Below the pieces are notes generated by a model. The model was given only the letters and a program-made list of their open reading frames with translations. It did no database searches and was not told the origin of the DNA. Below, piece by piece: positions 5,762 to 24,010 of a DNA stretch of 64,000 bases. The stretch spans positions 35,193 to 99,192 of the forward strand of contig CALWYD010000080.1 in NCBI GenBank assembly GCA_944385675.1, given 5' to 3'. How positions within the stretch are numbered: the first letter of the stretch is position 1; each line of letters opens with the position of its first letter. The position numbers and the translations under genes are program-made. The DNA comes from an uncultured Oscillospiraceae bacterium. GTDB taxonomy: Bacteria; Bacillota; Clostridia; Oscillospirales; Oscillospiraceae.

Positions 5762-6490
5762 TTAAAATATCGCGGTATAGGCAGCGCCCAATACCAGGGC
5801 AGGCAGCATATTGGCTACCCGAAATTTCGGCCCAAAGGCCAGATTTATCCCCACGCAGAAAACGAGCATAGCCCCCAGCGCAGATAAGTTATCCACTATC
5901 TCCGGGCGAAACACCGGAGCCAGACCCCCTGCGCACAGAGTCACGGTTCCCTGCAGCACCCCCACGGGCAGAGCGGAAAACACCGCCCCCTTGCCATAGG
6001 TAGAGGCAAAGATGATGACAATTAAAAAGTCCAGGATGGACTTGGTGAACAGCGTGGTGGGGTCACCGGACATTCCATCCTGAATGGACCCCACAATGGC
6101 CATGGCTCCGATACAGACAGTGAGGGAGGCGGTGACAAACCCCTGGACAAACCGGCTGTCTCCGCCGCCCCGGTCGGCCCGGGCCTTCAGCCACACGCCC
6201 AGCCGCTCCAGCCGCCCTTCCAGGTCCAGCCACTCCCCTGCCAAGCTCCCCAGGGCAAGGGCCAGAATCATCCCCAGCGTCTCCTTCATGGATACGCCGG
6301 TCAGCGTTCCCCCTTCTACCTTCAACATTCCCGGCAACGCCCCCGAGGCTCCGATAAACATGGTACATAGGCCCAGAGCCTGTATCACCACCTGCTGCCG
6401 CCGCTCCCCCAGGCCGCCCCGGAACACCAGACCCAGACTGCCTCCTATTACAATGGCCGACACATTGACAAGGGTGCCCACACCCACCAT
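5762..6490 (-). CDS. DUF554 (YdfK/YqgA-like) membrane protein
   Basis: GTLVN..AI..G, FVTASLTVCIGAMAIVGSIQDG, KSILD, RVANMLP. Confidence 0.88.
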   Translation of the reverse strand: MVGVGTLVNVSAIVIGGSLGLVFRGGLGERRQQVVIQALGLCTMFIGASGALPGMLKVEGGTLTGVSMKETLGMILALALGSLAGEWLDLEGRLERLGVWLKARADRGGGDSRFVQGFVTASLTVCIGAMAIVGSIQDGMSGDPTTLFTKSILDFLIVIIFASTYGKGAVFSALPVGVLQGTVTLCAGGLAPVFRPEIVDNLSALGAMLVFCVGINLAFGPKFRVANMLPALVLGAAYTAIF

Positions 6491-6688
6491 GGCCCCCACC
6501 TCCACAGTTCTTTTGCCGCCCAAAAGCCAGCGATGCCGCTACATTATAAACAAAAAACTCCCCCTTGTCAAAGGGGGACGTTGCAGGGGCCGGGCGGCTG
6601 TGCTATACTTACTCTGTTCCCAAAGCACTACCCCGCTTTCAGGGAATGTGAGGCACACCGTCTCCAATGGGAAAGGAGAAGTTTCACC

Positions 6689-7528
6689 ATGAGAACTATT
6701 TTCGCCTCGGCCATTACAGACACAGTGGCCAGGCTATGTATTCAGGCCAACTCTCAGCTGCCCCCTGATGTGGCCGCCGCCCTGAAGCGGGCCAACAGGG
6801 CTGAGCCCTGGCCTCTGGCCCGGGAAACGCTGGAGCTTCTGCAGGATAACCTGGATTTGGCGCGGATACGGAACCTGCCCATCTGTCAGGATACGGGCAT
6901 GGCCTGCGTGTTCGTAGAACTGGGGCAGGACGTGCATATCCAGGGCGATTTTGAACAGGCCATCCATCAAGGGGTGCGCCAGGGATATGGCGAGGGCTAT
7001 CTGCGCAAATCCCTGGTGGCCGATCCCCTGCGGCGGGTAAACACCGGAGACAATACCCCTGCCACCCTCACCCTCCGCTTAGTACCTGGGGACAAATTGA
7101 CCATTACCGTGGCTCCCAAGGGTTTCGGGAGTGAAAATATGAGCCGCCTTGCCATGCTCCGCCCCGCCGACGGGGTAGAGGGCGTGAAGCAGTTTGTGGT
7201 GGAGACAGTACGCCTGGCCGGCCCCAACCCCTGCCCGCCCATTATTCTTGGAGTGGGCGTGGGCGGCTCCTTTGACAAGGTGGCCGCACTGGCTAAGCAC
7301 GCCCTGCTGCGCCCCCTGGACCGTCCCCATCCGGATCCCTTCTACGCCGCCCTGGAACAGGAGCTGCTGGAAAAAATCAATTCTCTGGGCATCGGTCCCC
7401 AGGGCTTTGGTGGGAAAACCACCTGTCTGGGCCTGGCCATTGAGGCGGCGCCTACCCACGTTGCCGGGCTGCCGGTGGCCGTCAACGTCAGCTGCCACGT
7501 CACCCGGCGGGCTACCGCAGAGCTATAG
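6689..7528 (+). CDS. Fe-S hydro-lyase alpha subunit (class I fumarate hydratase/tartrate dehydratase)
   Basis: PICQDTG, KGFGSENMS, NPCPP, CHVTRR; ATG after AAGGAG. Confidence 0.9.
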   Translation: MRTIFASAITDTVARLCIQANSQLPPDVAAALKRANRAEPWPLARETLELLQDNLDLARIRNLPICQDTGMACVFVELGQDVHIQGDFEQAIHQGVRQGYGEGYLRKSLVADPLRRVNTGDNTPATLTLRLVPGDKLTITVAPKGFGSENMSRLAMLRPADGVEGVKQFVVETVRLAGPNPCPPIILGVGVGGSFDKVAALAKHALLRPLDRPHPDPFYAALEQELLEKINSLGIGPQGFGGKTTCLGLAIEAAPTHVAGLPVAVNVSCHVTRRATAEL

Positions 7529-7670
7529 CCGGGAAACCTCCGTCCGCTCCCACGTGCCGGTCTTGCGTCCGGCCGTCTCAGCGCTTTCCCAGGCGCCGCG
7601 GCCGGCTTCATGGTATCTGCTGTCTGCCACGTAAGAAATCACAAGTCTGAACCCACTGGAGGTCATCTCT

Positions 7671-8225
7671 ATGCAGTATAAACTGACTACCCCTGTCACC
7701 CGGGAAGACCTTTCCCCCCTGCGTGCGGGGGACACCGTGCTGCTCTCCGGAGTGGTATACACCGCGCGGGACGCAGCCCATAAGCGCATGATGGAGCTGT
7801 TGGACGCTGGACAACCCCTCCCCTTCCCCGTGGAGGGCTCAGCCATCTACTATGTGGGCCCTACCCCTGAACGGCCCGGCCAAATTATTGGCTCTGCCGG
7901 CCCCACTACCAGCGGTCGCATGGACCCCTACTCCCCCCGCCTCTTGGACCTGGGACAGGCCATTATGATTGGCAAGGGTGCCAGGAACCAGGCGGTCAGA
8001 GAGGCTGTGGTGCGCAACGGAGCGGTATATCTGGCCGCTCTGGGAGGTGCAGGCGCCTTGATGGCTGACAGCGTGCGCTCCCTGGAAGTTATTTGCTGGG
8101 AAGATCTGGGTTGTGAGGCCGTAAGAAAGCTGGTGGTAAAAAATTTCCCCCTCACCGTTATCCTGGACCCCTATGGGGGCAACCTGTATGAGAGCGGGCC
8201 GGCCGCTTACCTGGCCAGCCTGTGA
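7671..8225 (+). CDS. Fe-S hydro-lyase beta subunit
   Basis: TARDAAH, GPTTSGRMD, IGKG, LGCEA. Confidence 0.9.
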   Translation: MQYKLTTPVTREDLSPLRAGDTVLLSGVVYTARDAAHKRMMELLDAGQPLPFPVEGSAIYYVGPTPERPGQIIGSAGPTTSGRMDPYSPRLLDLGQAIMIGKGARNQAVREAVVRNGAVYLAALGGAGALMADSVRSLEVICWEDLGCEAVRKLVVKNFPLTVILDPYGGNLYESGPAAYLASL

Positions 8226-8273
8226 CCCCACTCATTTTCTCTCTGTTATTTTTCCGCTGAAAGGAGTAAACCT

Positions 8274-9335
8274 ATGAAACGAACCTTATCTCTTCTGTTG
8301 TGCGCCGCACTGTCCCTGTCCCTGTTGGCCGGCTGCGGCCCTAAGGGGGGAGACTCTTCCTCCGCCCCCCAATCTTCCTCTTCTTCCTCTCAGGGCGGGG
8401 ATGAGTCAGAAGTCTCCTCCCAGGGCGGCAGCCAGACGGACTCAGAGCTTCCCCGGCTGATGGTTCTCTCCGGCCCCACCGGAGTAGGCGCCGCCAAATT
8501 GATGGCAGACTGGGAGGAGGGCAGTCAGGCTGTGATCGCCTCTGCCACCGTGGAGGCGGATAACCAGGTGGTATCTAACGCCCTGGTCAACGGGGACACA
8601 GATATCGCCGCCATGGCCACCAACGTGGCCGCCAGTCTATATGCCAAAACCGACGGGGCTATCCAGGTGCTGTGCATCAACACCTTGGGCGTGCTGTACC
8701 TCCTGGAGAAGGGGGAGAGCGTCCACGCCATCACGGATTTGGCGGGCAAAACAGTATACGCCACCGGCCAGGGGGCCAATCCGGAGTATGTACTCAACTA
8801 CCTGCTGACAGAAAACAAGGTGGATCCCGCCTCGGTGGACATCCAGTGGATGACTGCCCAGGAGGTCAGTGCAAAGATGACTTCCTCCCAGGAGGGAATC
8901 TGCATGCTTCCCGTCCCTGCCGCTACCGCCCTGCTCCTTCAGGACAGCGACATCCGCCAGGCCATCTCCCTGTCCAGCGTCTGGGACGGTCTGGAGCGGG
9001 GTTCTCTGCCCATGGGCTGTATTGTAGCCAGGGCCGACTATGTGCAGGAACATCCCCAGGAGGTAGAGGCCTTCCTCCAGGCCTATCAGTCCTCCATCTC
9101 CTATATGTCTGACCCGGCTAATCTGGAACAGGCCGCCCAGCTGGTGGCCCAGTTCGGCATCACCGCCAACCAGCAGGTGGCTGCCGCCGCCATCCCCCAG
9201 TGTAACCTCACATATTTGGCAGGGGAGGAAATGAGACAGACCCTGGAGGGCTACTATCAGGTCCTCATTCAGGCCGACCCCGCCTCAGTGGGCAGCGCCA
9301 TGCCCTATGACTCCTTCTACTATGGAGCCGGTTAA
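8274..9335 (+). CDS. NitT/TauT-type ABC transporter substrate-binding lipoprotein
   Basis: Lipobox LLAGC, Ser-rich linker, GPTG, NTLGVLY, GQGANPEY. Confidence 0.85.
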   Translation: MKRTLSLLLCAALSLSLLAGCGPKGGDSSSAPQSSSSSSQGGDESEVSSQGGSQTDSELPRLMVLSGPTGVGAAKLMADWEEGSQAVIASATVEADNQVVSNALVNGDTDIAAMATNVAASLYAKTDGAIQVLCINTLGVLYLLEKGESVHAITDLAGKTVYATGQGANPEYVLNYLLTENKVDPASVDIQWMTAQEVSAKMTSSQEGICMLPVPAATALLLQDSDIRQAISLSSVWDGLERGSLPMGCIVARADYVQEHPQEVEAFLQAYQSSISYMSDPANLEQAAQLVAQFGITANQQVAAAAIPQCNLTYLAGEEMRQTLEGYYQVLIQADPASVGSAMPYDSFYYGAG

Positions 9336-16839: not shown

Positions 16840-19026
16840 TTATTTACCCATGATGCGGGCCATCTGCACCATGGTAACCGCCACCTGGGCCCGGGTAGCC
16901 GTGGCCAGGGGGGCGAAGCTGCCGTCATCCCCGCCGCTCATGATGCCCAGGGTATAGCAGGTCTGGACGCCGGCGGCAGCATAGTCGGAAATAGAGGCGG
17001 CGTCGGTATACCGGGCCTGGCCCTCATTCACCACAGTGGAGGAATGGGGGTAGTTTTTGAGGAATCCATCAAAGAGAGCGGCCATATCCTGGCGGGTAAT
17101 GGGGGCGGTGGGGTTGAAGTCGGCCGCCATCTCGGCGGGGACAAATCCCTTTTCCAGCGCCCAGTTCACATATCCGGCGCGCCAGGCGCCGCCTGCCACG
17201 GGGGCAATGGTCTCACCGGAGAACTGGCTGAGGACGGTAAGAAACTCAGCGTAGTTCATGTTGGCCTCGGGAGCAAAGGTGCCGTCCCCGGCCCCGGCGA
17301 ACAGGCCCTTCTCGTACACAGTCTCCACAAAGCTGGCATACCAGGCGGAGGGGGACACGTCAGTAAAAATCTGGCCGGGGGCCATGACGGTCAGGGAGGT
17401 GGATGCGGTGGTGCGGCTGAACTGTCCGGAGGTGGCCTTGGCCTTAATGGTATGGGTGCCGCCGCCCAGACTGTCCAGATTCAGGTCATAGTAGTAGGGG
17501 GCCTTGGTCAGGGTGGCCACCGCGTTCCCGTCCACATAGTAGGTTACCGAGGTGGCGGCGTTGCCGGGGAAGGTGGCGTAGGTGGCCAGGCGCAAAGTGC
17601 CCTTCTGGGTACCAGAGAGGGAGGCGAGGGGCTGCCAGGTCTGGGTGCTGCTCTCCCCCTGGGCCAGGTAGGCCCCGTTGGATTGGATGGCGGACCGATA
17701 GGCCTGGGCCACAGTGTAATTTTCGTCCAGGGCATAGTTGTACTGGGCCCCGGAGAGGGTGTTGTCAAAGTAGAACACAGCTTTGATCTGGGGGTAGATC
17801 ATGTTTACATAGGAATAGAACTTGTTCACCTGATCGGCGGCAAAGGAGGTCAAGTCAGCACCGGTGGAGTTATTTTTGTAGGCAAAGCCGCACTCGCTGA
17901 TCATCATGGGCTTGCCGTGCTCCTGGGCGAAGCGCACCAGCGGCCGGAGGATGACCAGCGGGTCACTGTCGTAGAGGCCTTTGCCGTAGTAGGCGTCGTT
18001 ACCATAGCCGGTGGCGCCAAAGGTGTAGGAAGTGGCCTCGCCGGTGTAGTTGGTGTTGTGGTAGGTGGATACGCCGATCCAGTCCACGTACTGGTCGCCG
18101 GGGTAGAAGTCCTCAAAGGTAACATTGCGGTTGCTGACGTTGTCCGGGGAGAAGACCATCTTTATATTGTCGTACTTGGCCGCCTCCTGGGCCACCTTGC
18201 GGAAGGCCTGAATATAGGTATCGGGGTCACAGTCTGACCAGTTGTTCATCTCGGCCCCTAAGCGCAACAGGACGGTGGCGTTCAGGTTGCCCATGGCCTG
18301 CAGGCTCTCGGCAATGTAGCTGTCAGCGGACAGAACCTGCTGGGCGCCGGCAGTGCTCTCAGAGGAGAAGTTCCAGGCCAGCTCAATGACGCCACCCTGG
18401 ACCGCCTGGGCAAACTTGGGGAAGGTCTTGGTGTTGTAGTCAATCCAGTACTGCACCGAGTAGCTGTCCCCGAAGGTGACATACATCAAAACGGCGGACT
18501 CCCCACTCTCTGATCCGCCAGCAGTGGAGCCGTACCAAGTGCCGCTGGTGGGAGCTCCGGCATCAGGATAGCTCTGGCCGGGCTGGTCGGTGAGCACATA
18601 GATAGCCGCCTCCTGGGAGGCCCGCAGGTACTCCAGCCGGGCATTGACGTTAAGCAGGGTATCCTTGTAGCTCTTCACGTTGTCGTTGAGCCACTGGGCG
18701 TACTTCAGCTCCAGCTCCAGCCAGCGGATGGCCCCGTCGATGTCGCCCTTCATCTCGCAGCACCAAGCGGCCCGGCCGCACTTGGGCTCCAGGTTGTAGC
18801 AGATATCAGTGCAGATATCGTACTTGCTCAGCAGGTCGTAGGTCTGCTGGGCCACGGTGATCACCGCGTCGGCATCCTGGCTGCTCACTGCCTCGTCCCA
18901 GGCACTATGTAATTTCCAGTAGGCGGAGGGGTAGGTGAAGTCGGCAAAGGCAGCCGTACAGCACAGCCCCACTGCCATCACCAGGGACAGAGCGGCAGCC
19001 AAGGTTCGCCGCAAACAACGTTTCAT
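16840..19026 (-). CDS. Secreted GH26-like glycoside hydrolase with Ig-like and SLH domains
   Basis: Signal peptide; LRLGAEMN, FYPGDQYVDWIGVS, KPMMISECG; C-terminal SLH repeats (FTDV..WYA, ITRQDMA, TRAQVA). Confidence 0.85.
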   Translation of the reverse strand: MKRCLRRTLAAALSLVMAVGLCCTAAFADFTYPSAYWKLHSAWDEAVSSQDADAVITVAQQTYDLLSKYDICTDICYNLEPKCGRAAWCCEMKGDIDGAIRWLELELKYAQWLNDNVKSYKDTLLNVNARLEYLRASQEAAIYVLTDQPGQSYPDAGAPTSGTWYGSTAGGSESGESAVLMYVTFGDSYSVQYWIDYNTKTFPKFAQAVQGGVIELAWNFSSESTAGAQQVLSADSYIAESLQAMGNLNATVLLRLGAEMNNWSDCDPDTYIQAFRKVAQEAAKYDNIKMVFSPDNVSNRNVTFEDFYPGDQYVDWIGVSTYHNTNYTGEATSYTFGATGYGNDAYYGKGLYDSDPLVILRPLVRFAQEHGKPMMISECGFAYKNNSTGADLTSFAADQVNKFYSYVNMIYPQIKAVFYFDNTLSGAQYNYALDENYTVAQAYRSAIQSNGAYLAQGESSTQTWQPLASLSGTQKGTLRLATYATFPGNAATSVTYYVDGNAVATLTKAPYYYDLNLDSLGGGTHTIKAKATSGQFSRTTASTSLTVMAPGQIFTDVSPSAWYASFVETVYEKGLFAGAGDGTFAPEANMNYAEFLTVLSQFSGETIAPVAGGAWRAGYVNWALEKGFVPAEMAADFNPTAPITRQDMAALFDGFLKNYPHSSTVVNEGQARYTDAASISDYAAAGVQTCYTLGIMSGGDDGSFAPLATATRAQVAVTMVQMARIMGK

Positions 19027-19266
19027 ATTGATGCGCTTCCTTTCCTTCTTTCAAATAGCACAAAATCAGTGCTTCCACATAGTTTTTATTATAGCACTTT
19101 TCTTGTTTGATACAATCCTTTTTGCTGGAATGGGCAAAAGAAATGTGAACTTTTCGGAAATAAGCTGGACAGACGGGGGCGAGTTGGATTATGATAGGTT
19201 TTGTATGAACATGCACACTTGGCACGAGTTTTGTCCCCTGAGGACAGCCGCGCCTGGAGGTCATCC

Positions 19267-20586
19267 ATGAAACATTCTTTCTTTGGTGGGGTACATCCCG
19301 CCGGACAAAAAGAGAGTACGCGGCGCAAGCCCATTGCCCGGCTGGATCCTCAGCCCCAGCGGGTTATTATTCCCCTTTGTACTGGTTCCTTGGGGGGGGC
19401 AGAGCCTCTGGTTCGCCCGGGGGATCCGGTGAAGGTGGGGCAACCTCTGGCCCGGGGAACCGATGGGGGTGTAGGGGTTCATGCCAGCGTCTCCGGCCGG
19501 GTGGCCGCCCTGGAGGTCAGGCCCCACCCCTGGGGCGGGAGTCTGCCTGCTTTCGTGGTAGACAATGACGGGCAGAACGAGCCCTGGAACGACTGCCCCA
19601 GCCCCCTTCATTTAGATGAGATCACCCAGTCACTGCTGCTGGAACGCACCCAATGGGCCGGCGTGGCCGGCATGGGAGGCGGTGCCTTCCCCACTGCCCA
19701 GAAGCTGGAGCAGGCCGCCGGACATATTGATACGCTCATCGTAAACGCCGCTGAGTGCGAGCCCTATGTCACCGCCGACCATCGTCTGCTTCTTGAACGC
19801 AGTGACCATATCCTTCAGGGAGCTCAGGTCATTGCCCAGTGCTTGGGGGCCAAGCGGACTGTTGTAGTCACGGAAGGGGACAAGCTCAATGCTGTGGAGG
19901 CGGTAGAGCGCCGGCTGCGCAAGCGGGGCGTTCAGATGGAACTTTGCACCGTGGGGACTCGCTACCCCCTTGGGGCAGAACGGCAGATCGTTCAAACCGT
20001 CACCGGACGGGAAACGCCGGCGGACAGGACTGCTCTGGACATGAACTGTCTTGTTTTGAATGTGGCTACCGTCTTTGCCATCCAGGACGCTCTGTTCCGG
20101 GGAAGAGCTTTGACCCACCGGGCCGTCACCGTCACCGGCGGGGCAGTGGCCCGGCCACGCAACCTGTGGGTTCCCATCGGCACCCCCTTGCGCTGTCTGT
20201 TGGAGTGCTGTGGCGGGTTGCGGGAACCTCCTGAGCTCATTCTCACCGGGGGGCCCATGATGGGAATCCCCCAAAACAGCCTGGAAGCTCCGGTGGTCAA
20301 AAATACCAACGCTCTCATCTGTCTGACCAAGTGGGAACGTCGGGGCCAACGGCCGGAGACCACTTGCATCCGCTGCGGCAAATGTGTCGCTGCCTGTCCC
20401 ATGCACCTCTCCCCTATCTTCATTGCCCAGGCTCTGCGGCAAAACCGTACCAACAGGCTGCCCGCTCTCCATCCTCAGGACTGTATTCAGTGTGGCTGCT
20501 GCTCCTATATCTGCCCTGCCGGTATTCCTCTTATCGAGCTGGTGCGGCAAGCCGGAGAACTGCTGGAGAAAGGGGGAACCGCCTGA
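19267..20586 (+). CDS. rnfC: RnfC-like electron transport subunit
   Basis: FFGGVHP, HASVSG, GMGGGAFPT, NAAECEPY, GGPMMG, CIRCGKCVAACP, CIQCGCCSYICP. Confidence 0.92.
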   Translation: MKHSFFGGVHPAGQKESTRRKPIARLDPQPQRVIIPLCTGSLGGAEPLVRPGDPVKVGQPLARGTDGGVGVHASVSGRVAALEVRPHPWGGSLPAFVVDNDGQNEPWNDCPSPLHLDEITQSLLLERTQWAGVAGMGGGAFPTAQKLEQAAGHIDTLIVNAAECEPYVTADHRLLLERSDHILQGAQVIAQCLGAKRTVVVTEGDKLNAVEAVERRLRKRGVQMELCTVGTRYPLGAERQIVQTVTGRETPADRTALDMNCLVLNVATVFAIQDALFRGRALTHRAVTVTGGAVARPRNLWVPIGTPLRCLLECCGGLREPPELILTGGPMMGIPQNSLEAPVVKNTNALICLTKWERRGQRPETTCIRCGKCVAACPMHLSPIFIAQALRQNRTNRLPALHPQDCIQCGCCSYICPAGIPLIELVRQAGELLEKGGTA

Positions 20587-22223
20587 TGCAGACCAATTCC
20601 TCTCTGCGCTTGCCCCCCCAGGTGGGCCAGCCGGCCACCACCTTCTCCATGATGTTGGACATGCTGGTGGCCCTGCTCCCCGCCCTGAGCATGGGTATAT
20701 TCTTTTTCGGGTTCAGGGTACTGGTGCTGGCCGCGGTCTCGGTGGGTGCCTGTGTACTGTTTGAATATGGCTACCGTCGCTTTACCGGACAGGAAAATAC
20801 TGTCCGCGACCTGTCTGCCTGTGTCACCGGGCTTCTGCTGGCCATGAGCCTGCCTCCCTCTGCCCCTTACTGGGTACCCGTGCTGGGCGCCGCCTTCTCC
20901 ATTGTATTGGTCAAACAGTTTTATGGCGGGTTGGGGAAAAACTTTATGAACCCTGCCCTGGGCGGACGGATGCTGCTGGCCACGTTCCCCGCCCTGATGA
21001 CCACCTGGCCCCAGCCCCTGCTTGGAGTGGATGCCGTCTCCGCTGCCACCCCCATGTCTTACCTCCACGACGGCCTGCTTCCCCCCCAGACACTGGGCCA
21101 ACTCCTGCTGGGCCAACAGGGTGGCTGCGCCGGGGAGACCTCCGCCTTCATGCTCCTGCTGGGCGGAGGCTATCTGCTGCTGCGCCGGGTCATCTCCCCA
21201 CGCATCCCCCTCTCCTACCTGGGGACGGTGGCTGCGCTGGCTTTGCTGTTCCCTCAGGGAGACCAGGGGGCCTTAGTGTGGATGTGCGCAAATCTGCTCA
21301 GCGGCGGACTGCTGCTGGGGGCGATTTTTATGGCCACCGATCCCACCACCTCTCCCGTCACACCCAGAGGGCAGATCCTGTTTGGCATAGGCTGCGGCCT
21401 GCTCACGGCCCTGCTGCGCAGTTGCAGTTCCTACCCCGAGGGAGTGGGATGGGCCATCCTTACTATGAACTGCTGCGTGTGGTTACTGGATCGGGCGGGG
21501 ATGCCCCGCCGTTTTGGCATCTCCCGCTTTCATGCCCTAAAAGAGCAGTGGGAACAGCTGCGGCAGAGCACAGCGGAAATCCGTTTTGTCAAGCCCAAGC
21601 TTTCCTTTCGCTTTCACCAGGCAGGTAAAATGCCCGGCGAAGACCACCTGGAGCAGATCCGCACTCAGACCCGGTGTCTGGGCTGTCTTGGGGTGGTAGT
21701 GCTGGCTGTTGGGTTGATGCTTTTTGCTGTCCACCGGTTCACCGATCTCAACACAGTCCGCGCAGAGAACCAGCGGCAGCAGGCACTTCTCTCCCAAGTG
21801 ATGCCCCAGGCCGCATTTTCTTCCGAAACTCCTTATCGAGCCAGCGGCGCGTTATCCATTACTGCCGGATATAGCAGCGATAACCAGTTGCTGGGCTATT
21901 GTGTGGAGGTACAGTCCCAGGGCTTTGGCGGCGTACTTACCATGCAGGTAGGGGTCAACCTTAACGGCCAGGTCACCGGCGTGGCCGTCACCGACCACAA
22001 AGAAACTCGCAGCGTGGGTACAAACGCTATGACATCTGAGGCCTTAAGTCGGTATATTGGAAAGTCGGGCACCATCCGCTCCTCCGGGGACAACTCGGTG
22101 GACGCGGTCAGCGGAGCCACCGCTACGTCCCGGGCCATCACCGATGGTGTCAATCGGGCGCTGGCCATTGTGGCCAATCTGGATACGGAGGGAGAGGTGG
22201 AGTATGTGGACAGTGAAGTGTAG
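20586..22223 (+). CDS. rnfD: RnfD-RnfG fusion protein
   Basis: RnfD motifs GGLGKNFMNPAL, DAVSAATP, DPTTSP, YPEGV; linker; TM helix; RnfG motifs GFGG, HKET, DAVSGATATS; one reading frame. Confidence 0.88.
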   Translation: MQTNSSLRLPPQVGQPATTFSMMLDMLVALLPALSMGIFFFGFRVLVLAAVSVGACVLFEYGYRRFTGQENTVRDLSACVTGLLLAMSLPPSAPYWVPVLGAAFSIVLVKQFYGGLGKNFMNPALGGRMLLATFPALMTTWPQPLLGVDAVSAATPMSYLHDGLLPPQTLGQLLLGQQGGCAGETSAFMLLLGGGYLLLRRVISPRIPLSYLGTVAALALLFPQGDQGALVWMCANLLSGGLLLGAIFMATDPTTSPVTPRGQILFGIGCGLLTALLRSCSSYPEGVGWAILTMNCCVWLLDRAGMPRRFGISRFHALKEQWEQLRQSTAEIRFVKPKLSFRFHQAGKMPGEDHLEQIRTQTRCLGCLGVVVLAVGLMLFAVHRFTDLNTVRAENQRQQALLSQVMPQAAFSSETPYRASGALSITAGYSSDNQLLGYCVEVQSQGFGGVLTMQVGVNLNGQVTGVAVTDHKETRSVGTNAMTSEALSRYIGKSGTIRSSGDNSVDAVSGATATSRAITDGVNRALAIVANLDTEGEVEYVDSEV

Positions 22224-22256
22224 TCCCTCCCGCCAGGGGAAGGAGGCAGGTCACTG

Positions 22257-22844
22257 ATGGCTGTATTGGATTTGGCAGGCGTGGCCCTGGCTGCCCTTTT
22301 GTCGGAAAATTTTGTATTGGTCTCCTCCATGGGAATTGGAACCCGAGTGGAGTCATTCCGCAGCCCGGTGGATGCCCTGCGCTCGGGCTACTGCCTGACC
22401 GTGGTCATGGTTCTCTCGACCCTGCTTTCCTGGCTGGCCAACTATTTGGTGCTGGACCGCTTTGGGTGGCAACACTTCCGGCTTCTGGCTCTCTGTCTGC
22501 TGGTGACAGGGGTGATATCAGGACTTCACGCTTTTCTGCAAGCCTGTCTACCGGCGCTGTTTCAGCGCATCAAGGGGAATTTATCTGCCGTATCCACCAA
22601 CTGCGCCGCCCTGGGCTGTACTCTGCTCATTTCCCAGCGCAGCTATGGTCTTGGTGCCGCCTTGCTGTTTTCCCTGTTTGGGGGGATCGGGGCCACCCTG
22701 GCCCTGGCCAGCTTCGCCAGCCTGCGGGGAGAGGTGAGCTTCGACCACTGTCCCCGGTGCTTTCAGGGTGCTCCCATTCTGCTGCTTACCGCCGGGCTGA
22801 TGGCTCTGGCCCTGGTGGGTTTTTACGGCCTGCATTTGCACTGA
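22257..22844 (+). CDS. rnfA: RnfA/Nqr-like membrane subunit (divergent)
   Basis: ENFVL, STNCAALG, PRCFQGAPILLLTAGLMALALVGF. Confidence 0.8.
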   Translation: MAVLDLAGVALAALLSENFVLVSSMGIGTRVESFRSPVDALRSGYCLTVVMVLSTLLSWLANYLVLDRFGWQHFRLLALCLLVTGVISGLHAFLQACLPALFQRIKGNLSAVSTNCAALGCTLLISQRSYGLGAALLFSLFGGIGATLALASFASLRGEVSFDHCPRCFQGAPILLLTAGLMALALVGFYGLHLH

Positions 22845-22948
22845 GTGCGACCTCTATTTCAGATCAGGGAATCACGCCCCGGAAACTGCAAAAAATATGG
22901 AGAAGCGCTGCAAAAGCACTTCTCCATACTTTTTCTCAGGAATTGCGT

Positions 22949-23119
22949 TTACTTGGCTCCCAGCTTGAAGGAGGCGCACTCGGTTCCCTCACACGCAGTG
23001 GGGTTTGCGCCGCAGCAACCTACCTTGATGCTGTCCAGGGAGCAGCAGTTGCTTGCGTTATGGTACGCACAGCTGCTGACAGTGCACTGGATGCTGGTAT
23101 TGCAGGACTTGTTCTCCAT
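22949..23119 (-). CDS. DUF1540 small Cys-rich protein
   Basis: IQCTVSSCAYH...CSLDSIKVG...TECASF; GAGGAGG RBS. Confidence 0.85.
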   Translation of the reverse strand: MENKSCNTSIQCTVSSCAYHNASNCCSLDSIKVGCCGANPTACEGTECASFKLGAK

Positions 23120-23150: not shown

Positions 23151-23179
23151 TAGTATGGTCGTTGTGGCGCATGTTATTC
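23151..23179 (-). promoter_or_regulatory. Putative sigma-G (forespore) promoter for the DUF1540 gene
   Basis: Minus strand GAATA-N17-CATACTA matches the sigma-G consensus. Confidence 0.55.
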
Positions 23180-24010
23180 CTTCGGTGCGTGATTTTCTTC
23201 TCCCTCCTCCAGAACCCGGGGAATAAAGCGGCGGGCAAAACGGCCTTTCCCTCGACTTTTTACATAAAAATATCCAATAAAGGAGAATACCACGGCCCCT
23301 ACAAAGTTCACGGCCAGATCCTTCATGGTGTCCAACAGCCCCACATCCAGATAGCCCCCCAACCCTAGGGGAATCTCCTCTCCTCCAGCCACCACGATAA
23401 CATCGGTAATGTCCCGGATAATCATTGGGGTGTTTCCTCCCGTAGGATCCAGCATAACTGAGGAAATAGCGTGGGTCACCGTGTCCTTCTGCATATCCAA
23501 CAAAAACAACTGATCCATCCCACACTCAAAAAACTCCCACAACACGCCAATTGTCATAGAGAAGCAGAAAGCCACAATGGCCATGAAGGTGGGGGACAGG
23601 GACAAAGAAAATCGCTCGTTGCGGTTGAGCATGTCTACCAAAGAAAAGCCGATGGCGGCACATAAAAACCCGTTGAGGGTATGGAGCATGGTGTCCCAGC
23701 CAGGAAATGTGGTATAAAACGACCGTATCTCCCCTAAAATCTCTGCTGCAAAAATAAACAGCATAATAATAATTTCCAGGGTGTTGGGCAGATCAATCTG
23801 CAGAGAACGCTCCACGATGGTGGGCAGCAGGAGCAGAACCAAGGTGAGGACACATAAAAATACATTTTCAAAATTACCGTTGAAAAACTGCGCTACCATC
23901 ACCGCGATGACGAAAAAGCGCAGAAAGACATAAACGGCAGCCACCGTGTGTTTTTTCCTGAGCGCCTGATCCGCCCAAGCGAAAACGTTGCGTTTTTTCT
24001 TTCTTGCCAA
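23174..24010 (-). CDS. Conserved integral membrane protein
   Basis: Multiple TM helices; WDTMLH, GVLWEFFE, DTMKDL. Confidence 0.8.
   Translation of the reverse strand: MARKKKRNVFAWADQALRKKHTVAAVYVFLRFFVIAVMVAQFFNGNFENVFLCVLTLVLLLLPTIVERSLQIDLPNTLEIIIMLFIFAAEILGEIRSFYTTFPGWDTMLHTLNGFLCAAIGFSLVDMLNRNERFSLSLSPTFMAIVAFCFSMTIGVLWEFFECGMDQLFLLDMQKDTVTHAISSVMLDPTGGNTPMIIRDITDVIVVAGGEEIPLGLGGYLDVGLLDTMKDLAVNFVGAVVFSFIGYFYVKSRGKGRFARRFIPRVLEEGEENHAPKE

Follow-up and report, generated by a model that had tools for sequence, protein, structure and literature searches.

A 64,000-nt stretch of DNA from an uncultured Oscillospiraceae bacterium (hereafter the window; contig C80 of the 2.1-Mb assembly G000, which is 87% complete with 4.7% contamination) carries, at positions 19267-22844, three co-directional genes derived from Rnf, the complex at the centre of energy conservation in many gut anaerobes. 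They encode RnfC', a fusion of RnfD and RnfG (D~G) and a divergent RnfA-like protein, A'. The locus contains neither rnfE nor rnfB, and nothing resembling RnfB is encoded within the unit or next to it. Pfam and NCBIfam scans thus agree with the first-pass annotation, which had described RnfC, a D-G fusion and a single RnfA-like subunit without RnfB or RnfE. The features of the locus, with protein lengths in amino acids (aa) and with flavin mononucleotide abbreviated FMN, are as follows.

19166-19195, + strand: sigma-70-type promoter-like site (TGGACA, 18-nt spacer, TATGAT) upstream of rnfC'
19267-20586, + strand: RnfC' (439 aa), NADH/FMN module with two [4Fe-4S] motifs (TIGR01945, Pfam)
20586-22223, + strand: RnfD-RnfG fusion (545 aa), PF03116 and PF04205 in one frame
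21048-21050, + strand: codon of T155, predicted covalent-FMN threonine of the RnfD part (DAVSAAT)
22119-22121, + strand: codon of T512, predicted covalent-FMN threonine of the RnfG part (DAVSGAT)
22257-22844, + strand: A' (195 aa), lone RnfA-derived six-helix membrane subunit (PF02508)
~22896-22928, no strand assigned: hairpin between an A-run and a U-run, from its fold energy a likely two-way intrinsic terminator

RnfC', D~G and A' make up a single operon, which has a conserved promoter and ends in a strong terminator. The stop codon of rnfC' overlaps the start codon of D~G (TGATG), and A' begins 33 nt after D~G, preceded by a strong ribosome-binding site, GGAAGGAGG. Both promoter hexamers and their spacing are preserved upstream of rnfC' in the related loci L023, L028 and L058. 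The terminator hairpin, overlooked by a simple terminator scan, has a folding energy of -21.2 kcal/mol (z -5.55), equalled in stability by 0 of 200 shuffled sequences, and is common to the three-gene unit and a convergent DUF1540 gene. Since a divergent gene for an SLH/GH26 protein bounds the unit on the other side, its earlier delimitation by a divergent gene and a convergent terminator stands.

RnfC' matches the RnfC model TIGR01945 above its cut-off (422 bits, cut-off 246) and comprises the Pfam domains RnfC_N, Complex1_51K, SLBB and two-cluster Fer4; it is 35% identical to the canonical RnfC of the same genome. Both CxxCxxCxxxCP motifs are present and all eight cluster cysteines are invariant in 41/41 orthologues, in agreement with the initial reading that the FMN/NADH motifs and two [4Fe-4S] sites had been kept.

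In D~G, the RnfD domain (PF03116, residues 10-311) is followed by a cytoplasmic linker (312-375), a membrane anchor (~376-398) and an FMN_bind domain (PF04205, 446-526). The linker is poorly conserved in sequence and conserved in length, with the short conserved motifs PRRFG, FVxP and GxMPGExYLDxLR, and the hydrophobic helix that follows it corresponds to the membrane anchor of RnfG. The first-pass annotation had rightly placed D and G in one frame with a linker between them, but its '~55-aa charged' segment is corrected here to linker plus anchor, residues 312-398, that is, ~65 cytoplasmic residues and then an RnfG-type transmembrane helix. This arrangement is consistent with a topology in which the RnfD C-terminus and the linker lie inside, the anchor crosses the membrane once and the FMN domain lies outside. 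The best PDB sequence matches are 7zc6_D (E 7e-75) and 7zc6_G (E 2e-19), and a Foldseek search with the AlphaFold2 model (predicted local distance difference test score, pLDDT, 75) returned the same two chains with TM-scores on target of 0.86 (RnfD) and 0.76 (RnfG). Both predicted flavin-attachment sites are retained: T155 is threonine in 44/44 sequences of three-gene units, and the G-A-T of T512 is present in 43/43 ungapped sequences. The SAAT and SGAT motifs are therefore intact, as had been noted; SAAT is no deviation, since DAVSAAT is of the same type as the motif of the lineage's canonical RnfD and is the normal form there. The fused architecture recurs in >100 protein clusters at 64-83% identity, which rules out a strain-specific artefact. 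It is not a hallmark of a half-complex either, because true D-G fusions are also present in complete Rnf clusters of other Clostridia families; the fusion is thus compatible with a full Rnf.

A' is more distant from its family. It scores 79 bits against PF02508 and 106 bits against the RnfA model TIGR01943 (cut-off 229), on which the canonical RnfA of the genome reaches 241 bits, and its best PDB sequence match is 9eri_A (E 2e-23). In Acetobacterium woodii, C25 and C113 of RnfA and C25 and C108 of RnfE are the ligands of the intramembrane [2Fe-2S] cluster (doi 10.1101/2024.06.21.599731; reviewed in PMC12174285), and mutation of the ligand cysteines abolishes activity (doi 10.1101/2024.06.21.599731). 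When the window A' is aligned to 9eri_A, Gly28 occupies the C25 position, and C116 is retained at the C113 position. Cysteine is found in the C25 column in 0/44 A' sequences, compared with 38/38 RnfA and 37/37 RnfE. Judged from these alignments, A' is an RnfA derivative with a degenerate iron-sulfur site that has lost the first [2Fe-2S] ligand cysteine. Its other cysteines follow different patterns. C116, in transmembrane helix 4 (TM4), is 100% conserved in A'; a shifted cysteine, placed four residues ahead of the lost ligand, occurs in 91% of A' sequences, with serine (S24) there in the window copy; and a third, in a 'CP' motif before TM6, occurs in 100% of A' and also in 63% of canonical RnfA. 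In L113, a deep-branching relative, both A' cysteines are lost. The Lys+Arg bias of A' (+5.4) resembles that of RnfA (+4.4) and not that of RnfE (-5.1), implying a fixed RnfA orientation that leaves A' unable to take the inverted RnfE position. A dual-topology A' homodimer replacing the A/E pair is ruled out by the same bias. A 400-genome sample of the order yielded no A' orthologues elsewhere, only canonical RnfA at 28-37% identity.

The first-pass annotation had left room for this being the only rnf locus. It is not: contig C1 of the same genome carries a complete rnfC-D-G-E-A-B cluster in which D and G are separate genes and C, D, E, A and B all exceed their NCBIfam cut-offs, so the genome has no need of the three-gene unit for Rnf. 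A survey of 80 related loci from named genomes, together with synteny, revealed that the three-gene order is conserved across a group of genera. The order RnfC'-D~G-A' without rnfE or rnfB is found in 43/80 loci, none of which has E or B beside it, and the carriers belong to Pseudoflavonifractor, Lawsonibacter, Flintibacter, Muriventricola and further Oscillospiraceae, with variable genes flanking the unit. The remaining 37/80 loci, from Agathobaculum, Butyricicoccus, Flavonifractor plautii and others, encode the full set of Rnf subunits, with D and G as separate genes that often share a frame and are parted by a stop codon. Agathobaculum-type loci were rejected as fusions, because tblastn had read through this stop. 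In 23/24 genomes of the same genus, the fusion is accompanied by a separate canonical RnfD. Median pairwise ratios of non-synonymous to synonymous substitution rates (dN/dS) are 0.37 for RnfC', 0.35 for D~G and 0.36 for A'; these values are inflated by saturated synonymous sites and show constraint rather than its exact strength, indicating that all three genes are under selection. At the level of sequence, then, the gene content, the conservation of the cofactor sites and the loss of the iron-sulfur ligand are established properties of the unit.

Phylogenetic comparison with canonical Rnf, which had been called for at the outset, places the window-type fusions in a clade separate from the canonical RnfD of the window's genome: in the RnfD tree, window-type units and L113 form one clade with a support of 90 in the Shimodaira-Hasegawa-like approximate likelihood ratio test (SH-aLRT). 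L112 and the metagenome locus L118 hold a second kind of three-gene unit, composed of C, fused DG and one RnfE-like subunit without the TM4 cysteine. Their RnfD groups with fused D-G genes of complete clusters, a position implying that this unit arose independently of the window-type units. Directly upstream of it, on the same strand, lies the gene of an extracytoplasmic flavin reductase of 734 aa, in which two FMN_bind domains are combined with FAD_binding_2. Relatives of this lineage have complete rnfC-(DG)-E-A-B clusters, several of them flanked by similar reductase genes.

Two side observations extend this picture. Complete rnfC-(fused DG)-E-A-B clusters with FMN_bind/FAD_binding_2 reductase-like flanks are found in the human-gut metagenome loci L120, L122 and L126-L128 (5674-7461) and in L142 and L172 (~6460-9150), an arrangement suggesting that extracytoplasmic flavin reductases can be supplied by complete Rnf complexes too. 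Separately, the Oscillospiraceae genome G065 carries, on its contig C56 (locus L111, 6852-11373, - strand), a divergent rnfC-D-G-E-A cluster and no canonical RnfA/E. Both ligand cysteines are missing from the RnfA-like protein of this cluster, and no adjoining rnfB was detected; L111 is another reduced form of Rnf. G065 had been a candidate for a carrier without canonical Rnf and was rejected, as it holds this cluster instead of the three-gene unit.

The separate complete Rnf, the conservation of the unit, its invariant cofactor sites, the degenerate A' and the independent reductase-linked unit together favour a one-way link between NAD(H) and an outer flavin. On balance, we lean towards the view that the unit is a stand-alone, ferredoxin-independent conduit from NADH to an outward-facing flavin. 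With the ferredoxin-side parts lost, electron transfer between NADH and the outer side of the membrane is probably unidirectional, and one-way conduits derived from Nqr/Rnf have published precedent (PMC8238504, PMC11334425), which supports this interpretation. In the proposed mechanism, NADH would be oxidised at the FMN of cytoplasmic RnfC', and electrons would then pass through the two [4Fe-4S] clusters of RnfC' to the flavins of the membrane-embedded RnfD domain. From there they would go on to the covalent FMN of the RnfG domain, which would face the outside of the cytoplasmic membrane, tethered to RnfD by the cytoplasmic linker and one transmembrane helix. They could exit to an extracytoplasmic acceptor, for which free flavins, quinone-like or humic compounds, metals, oxygen and an unlinked surface protein are candidates; reverse flow from an outside donor would also be possible. 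A' may be a remnant of RnfA kept mainly as a scaffold for membrane assembly, and the canonical return path from the RnfA/E [2Fe-2S] cluster through RnfB to ferredoxin would be gone, along with its ion pumping. We infer the direction of flow, the external acceptor and stand-alone assembly, drawing the outward direction and the acceptor partly from analogy with the independent reductase-linked case.

Several observations weigh against a conduit of this kind. All carrier genomes found also hold canonical RnfE and RnfB, and no genome with the three-gene unit but without canonical Rnf was found. The conserved cysteines of A' (C116 in 100% and the shifted cysteine in 91%) hint at a remaining metal or redox role. 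The flavin transferase family ApbE (PF02424), for which a search had been proposed, was not found in the 87%-complete genome of the window but is present in relatives: five near-complete genomes of the genus have one copy each. FMN_bind domains number only two in the near-complete genomes of the genus, those of canonical RnfG and D~G, which leaves no further FMN_bind protein and no separate PplA-like surface lipoprotein. No FAD_binding_2 (PF00890) protein was matched in G000, G009 or G014, and searches with PF00890 and FMN_bind found no partner of the fumarate/urocanate-reductase type in this genus. Neither in the window nor in the genus searches was a gene for an external acceptor or donor found. 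Moreover, because the L112/L118 lineage is independent, its reductase link is an analogy and not a homology. The suggestion made in the first-pass annotation, that this half-complex links NAD(H) to an extracytoplasmic flavin, has thus gained support from the second Rnf, the invariant C, D and G sites, the degenerate A' site and the independent reductase-linked unit, while its external acceptor or donor did not emerge.

Foremost among the alternatives, RnfC', D~G and A' might serve as alternative subunits, assembling with RnfE and RnfB from the canonical locus into a second ferredoxin:NAD+ Rnf isoform, for example under other growth conditions. Such mixed assembly is possible because every carrier genome examined has a canonical rnfCDGEAB and some of the A' cysteines are conserved, namely the one in TM4 and, in most sequences, the shifted one. 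Furthermore, A' has the RnfA orientation needed for pairing with RnfE, and D-G fusions work inside complete clusters elsewhere. The co-occurrence itself, however, is uninformative, since RnfA/E is present in 266/301 genomes of the family anyway. Cys25 is absent from every one of the 44 A' sequences, the window copy lacks the shifted cysteine as well and L113 has neither; RnfE or RnfB is encoded with the unit in 0/43 loci; and A' is far removed from the RnfA model in comparison with the canonical copy. In addition, the independent lineage kept an RnfE-like rather than an RnfA-like subunit, which fits a scaffold better than specific A/E pairing. Overall, we regard a second isoform as unlikely, though it is the alternative to be taken most seriously.

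The cysteine pattern of A' raises another alternative, in which a metal centre has been rebuilt. A parallel A' homodimer could mimic the RnfA/E pair through internal repeat symmetry and bind an iron-sulfur or other metal centre by the shifted TM1 cysteine and the TM4 cysteine, so that the module, as a small but complete machine, would still move ions or return electrons to a cytoplasmic partner. The invariance of C116 and of the 'CP' cysteine, the frequency of the shifted cysteine and the equal constraint on A', RnfC' and D~G would all be accounted for. Yet the window A' has serine at the shifted position, L113 lacks both cysteines and no cytoplasmic partner is encoded nearby, and the 'CP' cysteine, being common in canonical RnfA too, is no new feature; the rebuilt centre appears improbable. 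Finally, that the unit is a decaying rnf duplicate without a function of its own, as the loss of two subunits and one cluster ligand and the low score of A' relative to the family cut-off could be taken to mean, is hardly credible for genes that are intact in 43 loci of several genera, with dN/dS of ~0.35 in all three, invariant cofactor residues and conserved promoter, translational coupling and linker length.

How far a conduit from NADH to an outer flavin would depart from described systems can be seen by comparison. To our knowledge, Rnf has so far been regarded only as a six-subunit ferredoxin:NAD+ machine. Relative to the canonical complexes of Clostridium tetanomorphum (7ZC6), A. woodii (9ERI) and Azotobacter vinelandii (8AHX), the unit has homologues of C, D, G and A in the same order and keeps both flavin-attachment sites and the RnfC clusters, but it is without RnfE and RnfB, D and G are fused, and A' is without the ligand Cys25. 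Canonical Rnf needs an RnfA/RnfE pair in opposite orientations contributing four cysteines to the [2Fe-2S] cluster, whereas the unit has a single subunit in the RnfA orientation. Given these differences, ferredoxin coupling and RnfA/E ion pumping would be inoperable as described. Complete Rnf clusters with fused RnfD-G (L115-L117 and the human-gut metagenome loci L120-L191) share the fusion architecture, with a reductase gene adjoining in a subset, but they keep rnfE, rnfA and rnfB and belong to an RnfD-tree lineage separate from the window clade.

The two-subunit 'NQR/RNF-like' systems (Méheust et al. 2021, PMC8238504; Huang et al. 2024, PMC11334425) are likewise partial forms of Nqr/Rnf that keep one transmembrane path, along which electrons of NAD(P)H reach an FMN-binding domain outside the cytoplasm. 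In these, an RnfD-like protein carries a fused C-terminal NqrF-type NAD domain (PF00175) and is accompanied by a separate FMN_bind protein but by no RnfA/E-like subunit, and the hosts are mostly Actinobacteria and the candidate phyla radiation; the flavin-attachment threonine of the RnfD-like protein is not conserved (PMC10979944). By contrast, the unit has a separate RnfC NADH module, G fused to D, a retained threonine, A' and Oscillospiraceae hosts, and Pfam detects only PF03116 and PF04205 in D~G, with no PF00175. In Na+-NQR (NqrA-F), NqrB, NqrC and NqrE are homologous to RnfD, RnfG and RnfA, and covalently bound flavins carry electrons across the membrane; the unit is without equivalents of NqrF, NqrA and NqrD and without a quinone site, and its proteins score far under the cut-offs of all Nqr models. 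It differs also from Gram-positive flavin-based extracellular electron transfer of the PplA/EetAB/Ndh2 type in that genomes of the genus have no separate PplA-like lipoprotein. A 2025 review of RNF/NQR (PMC12174285) mentions no fused or partial forms, and our literature searches aimed at the three-gene unit found no description of it. With the L112/L118 units in mind, we tentatively suggest, as a proposition that falls somewhat short of even odds, that a third class of module, so far undescribed, has evolved from Rnf more than once, consisting of RnfC, RnfD~G and one cofactor-poor A/E remnant and acting as a ferredoxin-independent NADH/extracytoplasmic-acceptor oxidoreductase.

Neighbours of the unit in the window were uninformative, the only recurrent ones being a 278-aa membrane protein and the SLH/GH26 protein. 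The latter is encoded by the divergent upstream gene (16840-19026, - strand), a 728-aa surface protein with GH26, Big_7 and SLH domains that adjoins the unit in 13 related loci. Downstream, the DUF1540 gene (22952-23119, - strand) encodes a Cys-rich protein of 56 aa (PF07561, 43.5 bits) and has its own GGAGG site. It is followed by the gene for the 278-aa multi-helix membrane protein (23174-24010, - strand), which has no Pfam match and lies in DNA with a local G+C of ~0.50 compared with 0.60. This gene recurs ~300 nt downstream of the unit in 24/44 loci, which may reflect either plain synteny or a functional link. At 19120-19160, and likewise in L023 and L028, a conserved TGTGAACTTTTCGGAAA-like sequence lies directly upstream of the conserved promoter; from its sequence it may be an operator, and it makes a poor Rex box. 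Operators for the NADH-sensing regulator Rex were not enriched upstream of the unit relative to shuffled sequence. In the same assembly, locus L199 (1598-3685 of the 3.7-kb contig C62) comprises a second D-G fusion, 68% identical to that of the window and cut by the contig end, and a second A'-like gene (54%) with the shifted cysteine. L199 is nearest to the L050 subclade (80% at the nucleotide level), and other genomes of the genus have one copy. It must be a paralogue or else a contaminant binned with the genome, the contamination of the assembly being 4.7%.

The three-gene unit is a conserved derivative that retains only the NADH-to-outer-flavin half of Rnf. As such, it offers a natural 'half-reaction' preparation of the complex, which could help to separate the roles of RnfD/G from those of RnfA/E in electron transfer and ion pumping, and cultured carriers are available in Pseudoflavonifractor sp. 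AF19-9AC, Flintibacter faecis BX5, Muriventricola aceti H5_61 and P. capillosus An827. If the proposed conduit is real, common butyrate producers would own a dedicated, so far unstudied route for moving reducing power across the membrane, and members of the Lawsonibacter/Flintibacter/Pseudoflavonifractor group would dispose of NADH electrons outside the cell alongside their energy-conserving Rnf. Possible acceptors include free flavins and oxygen at the mucosal interface. In the gut, such a route would matter for redox balance, for tolerance of oxygen and for extracellular electron transfer.

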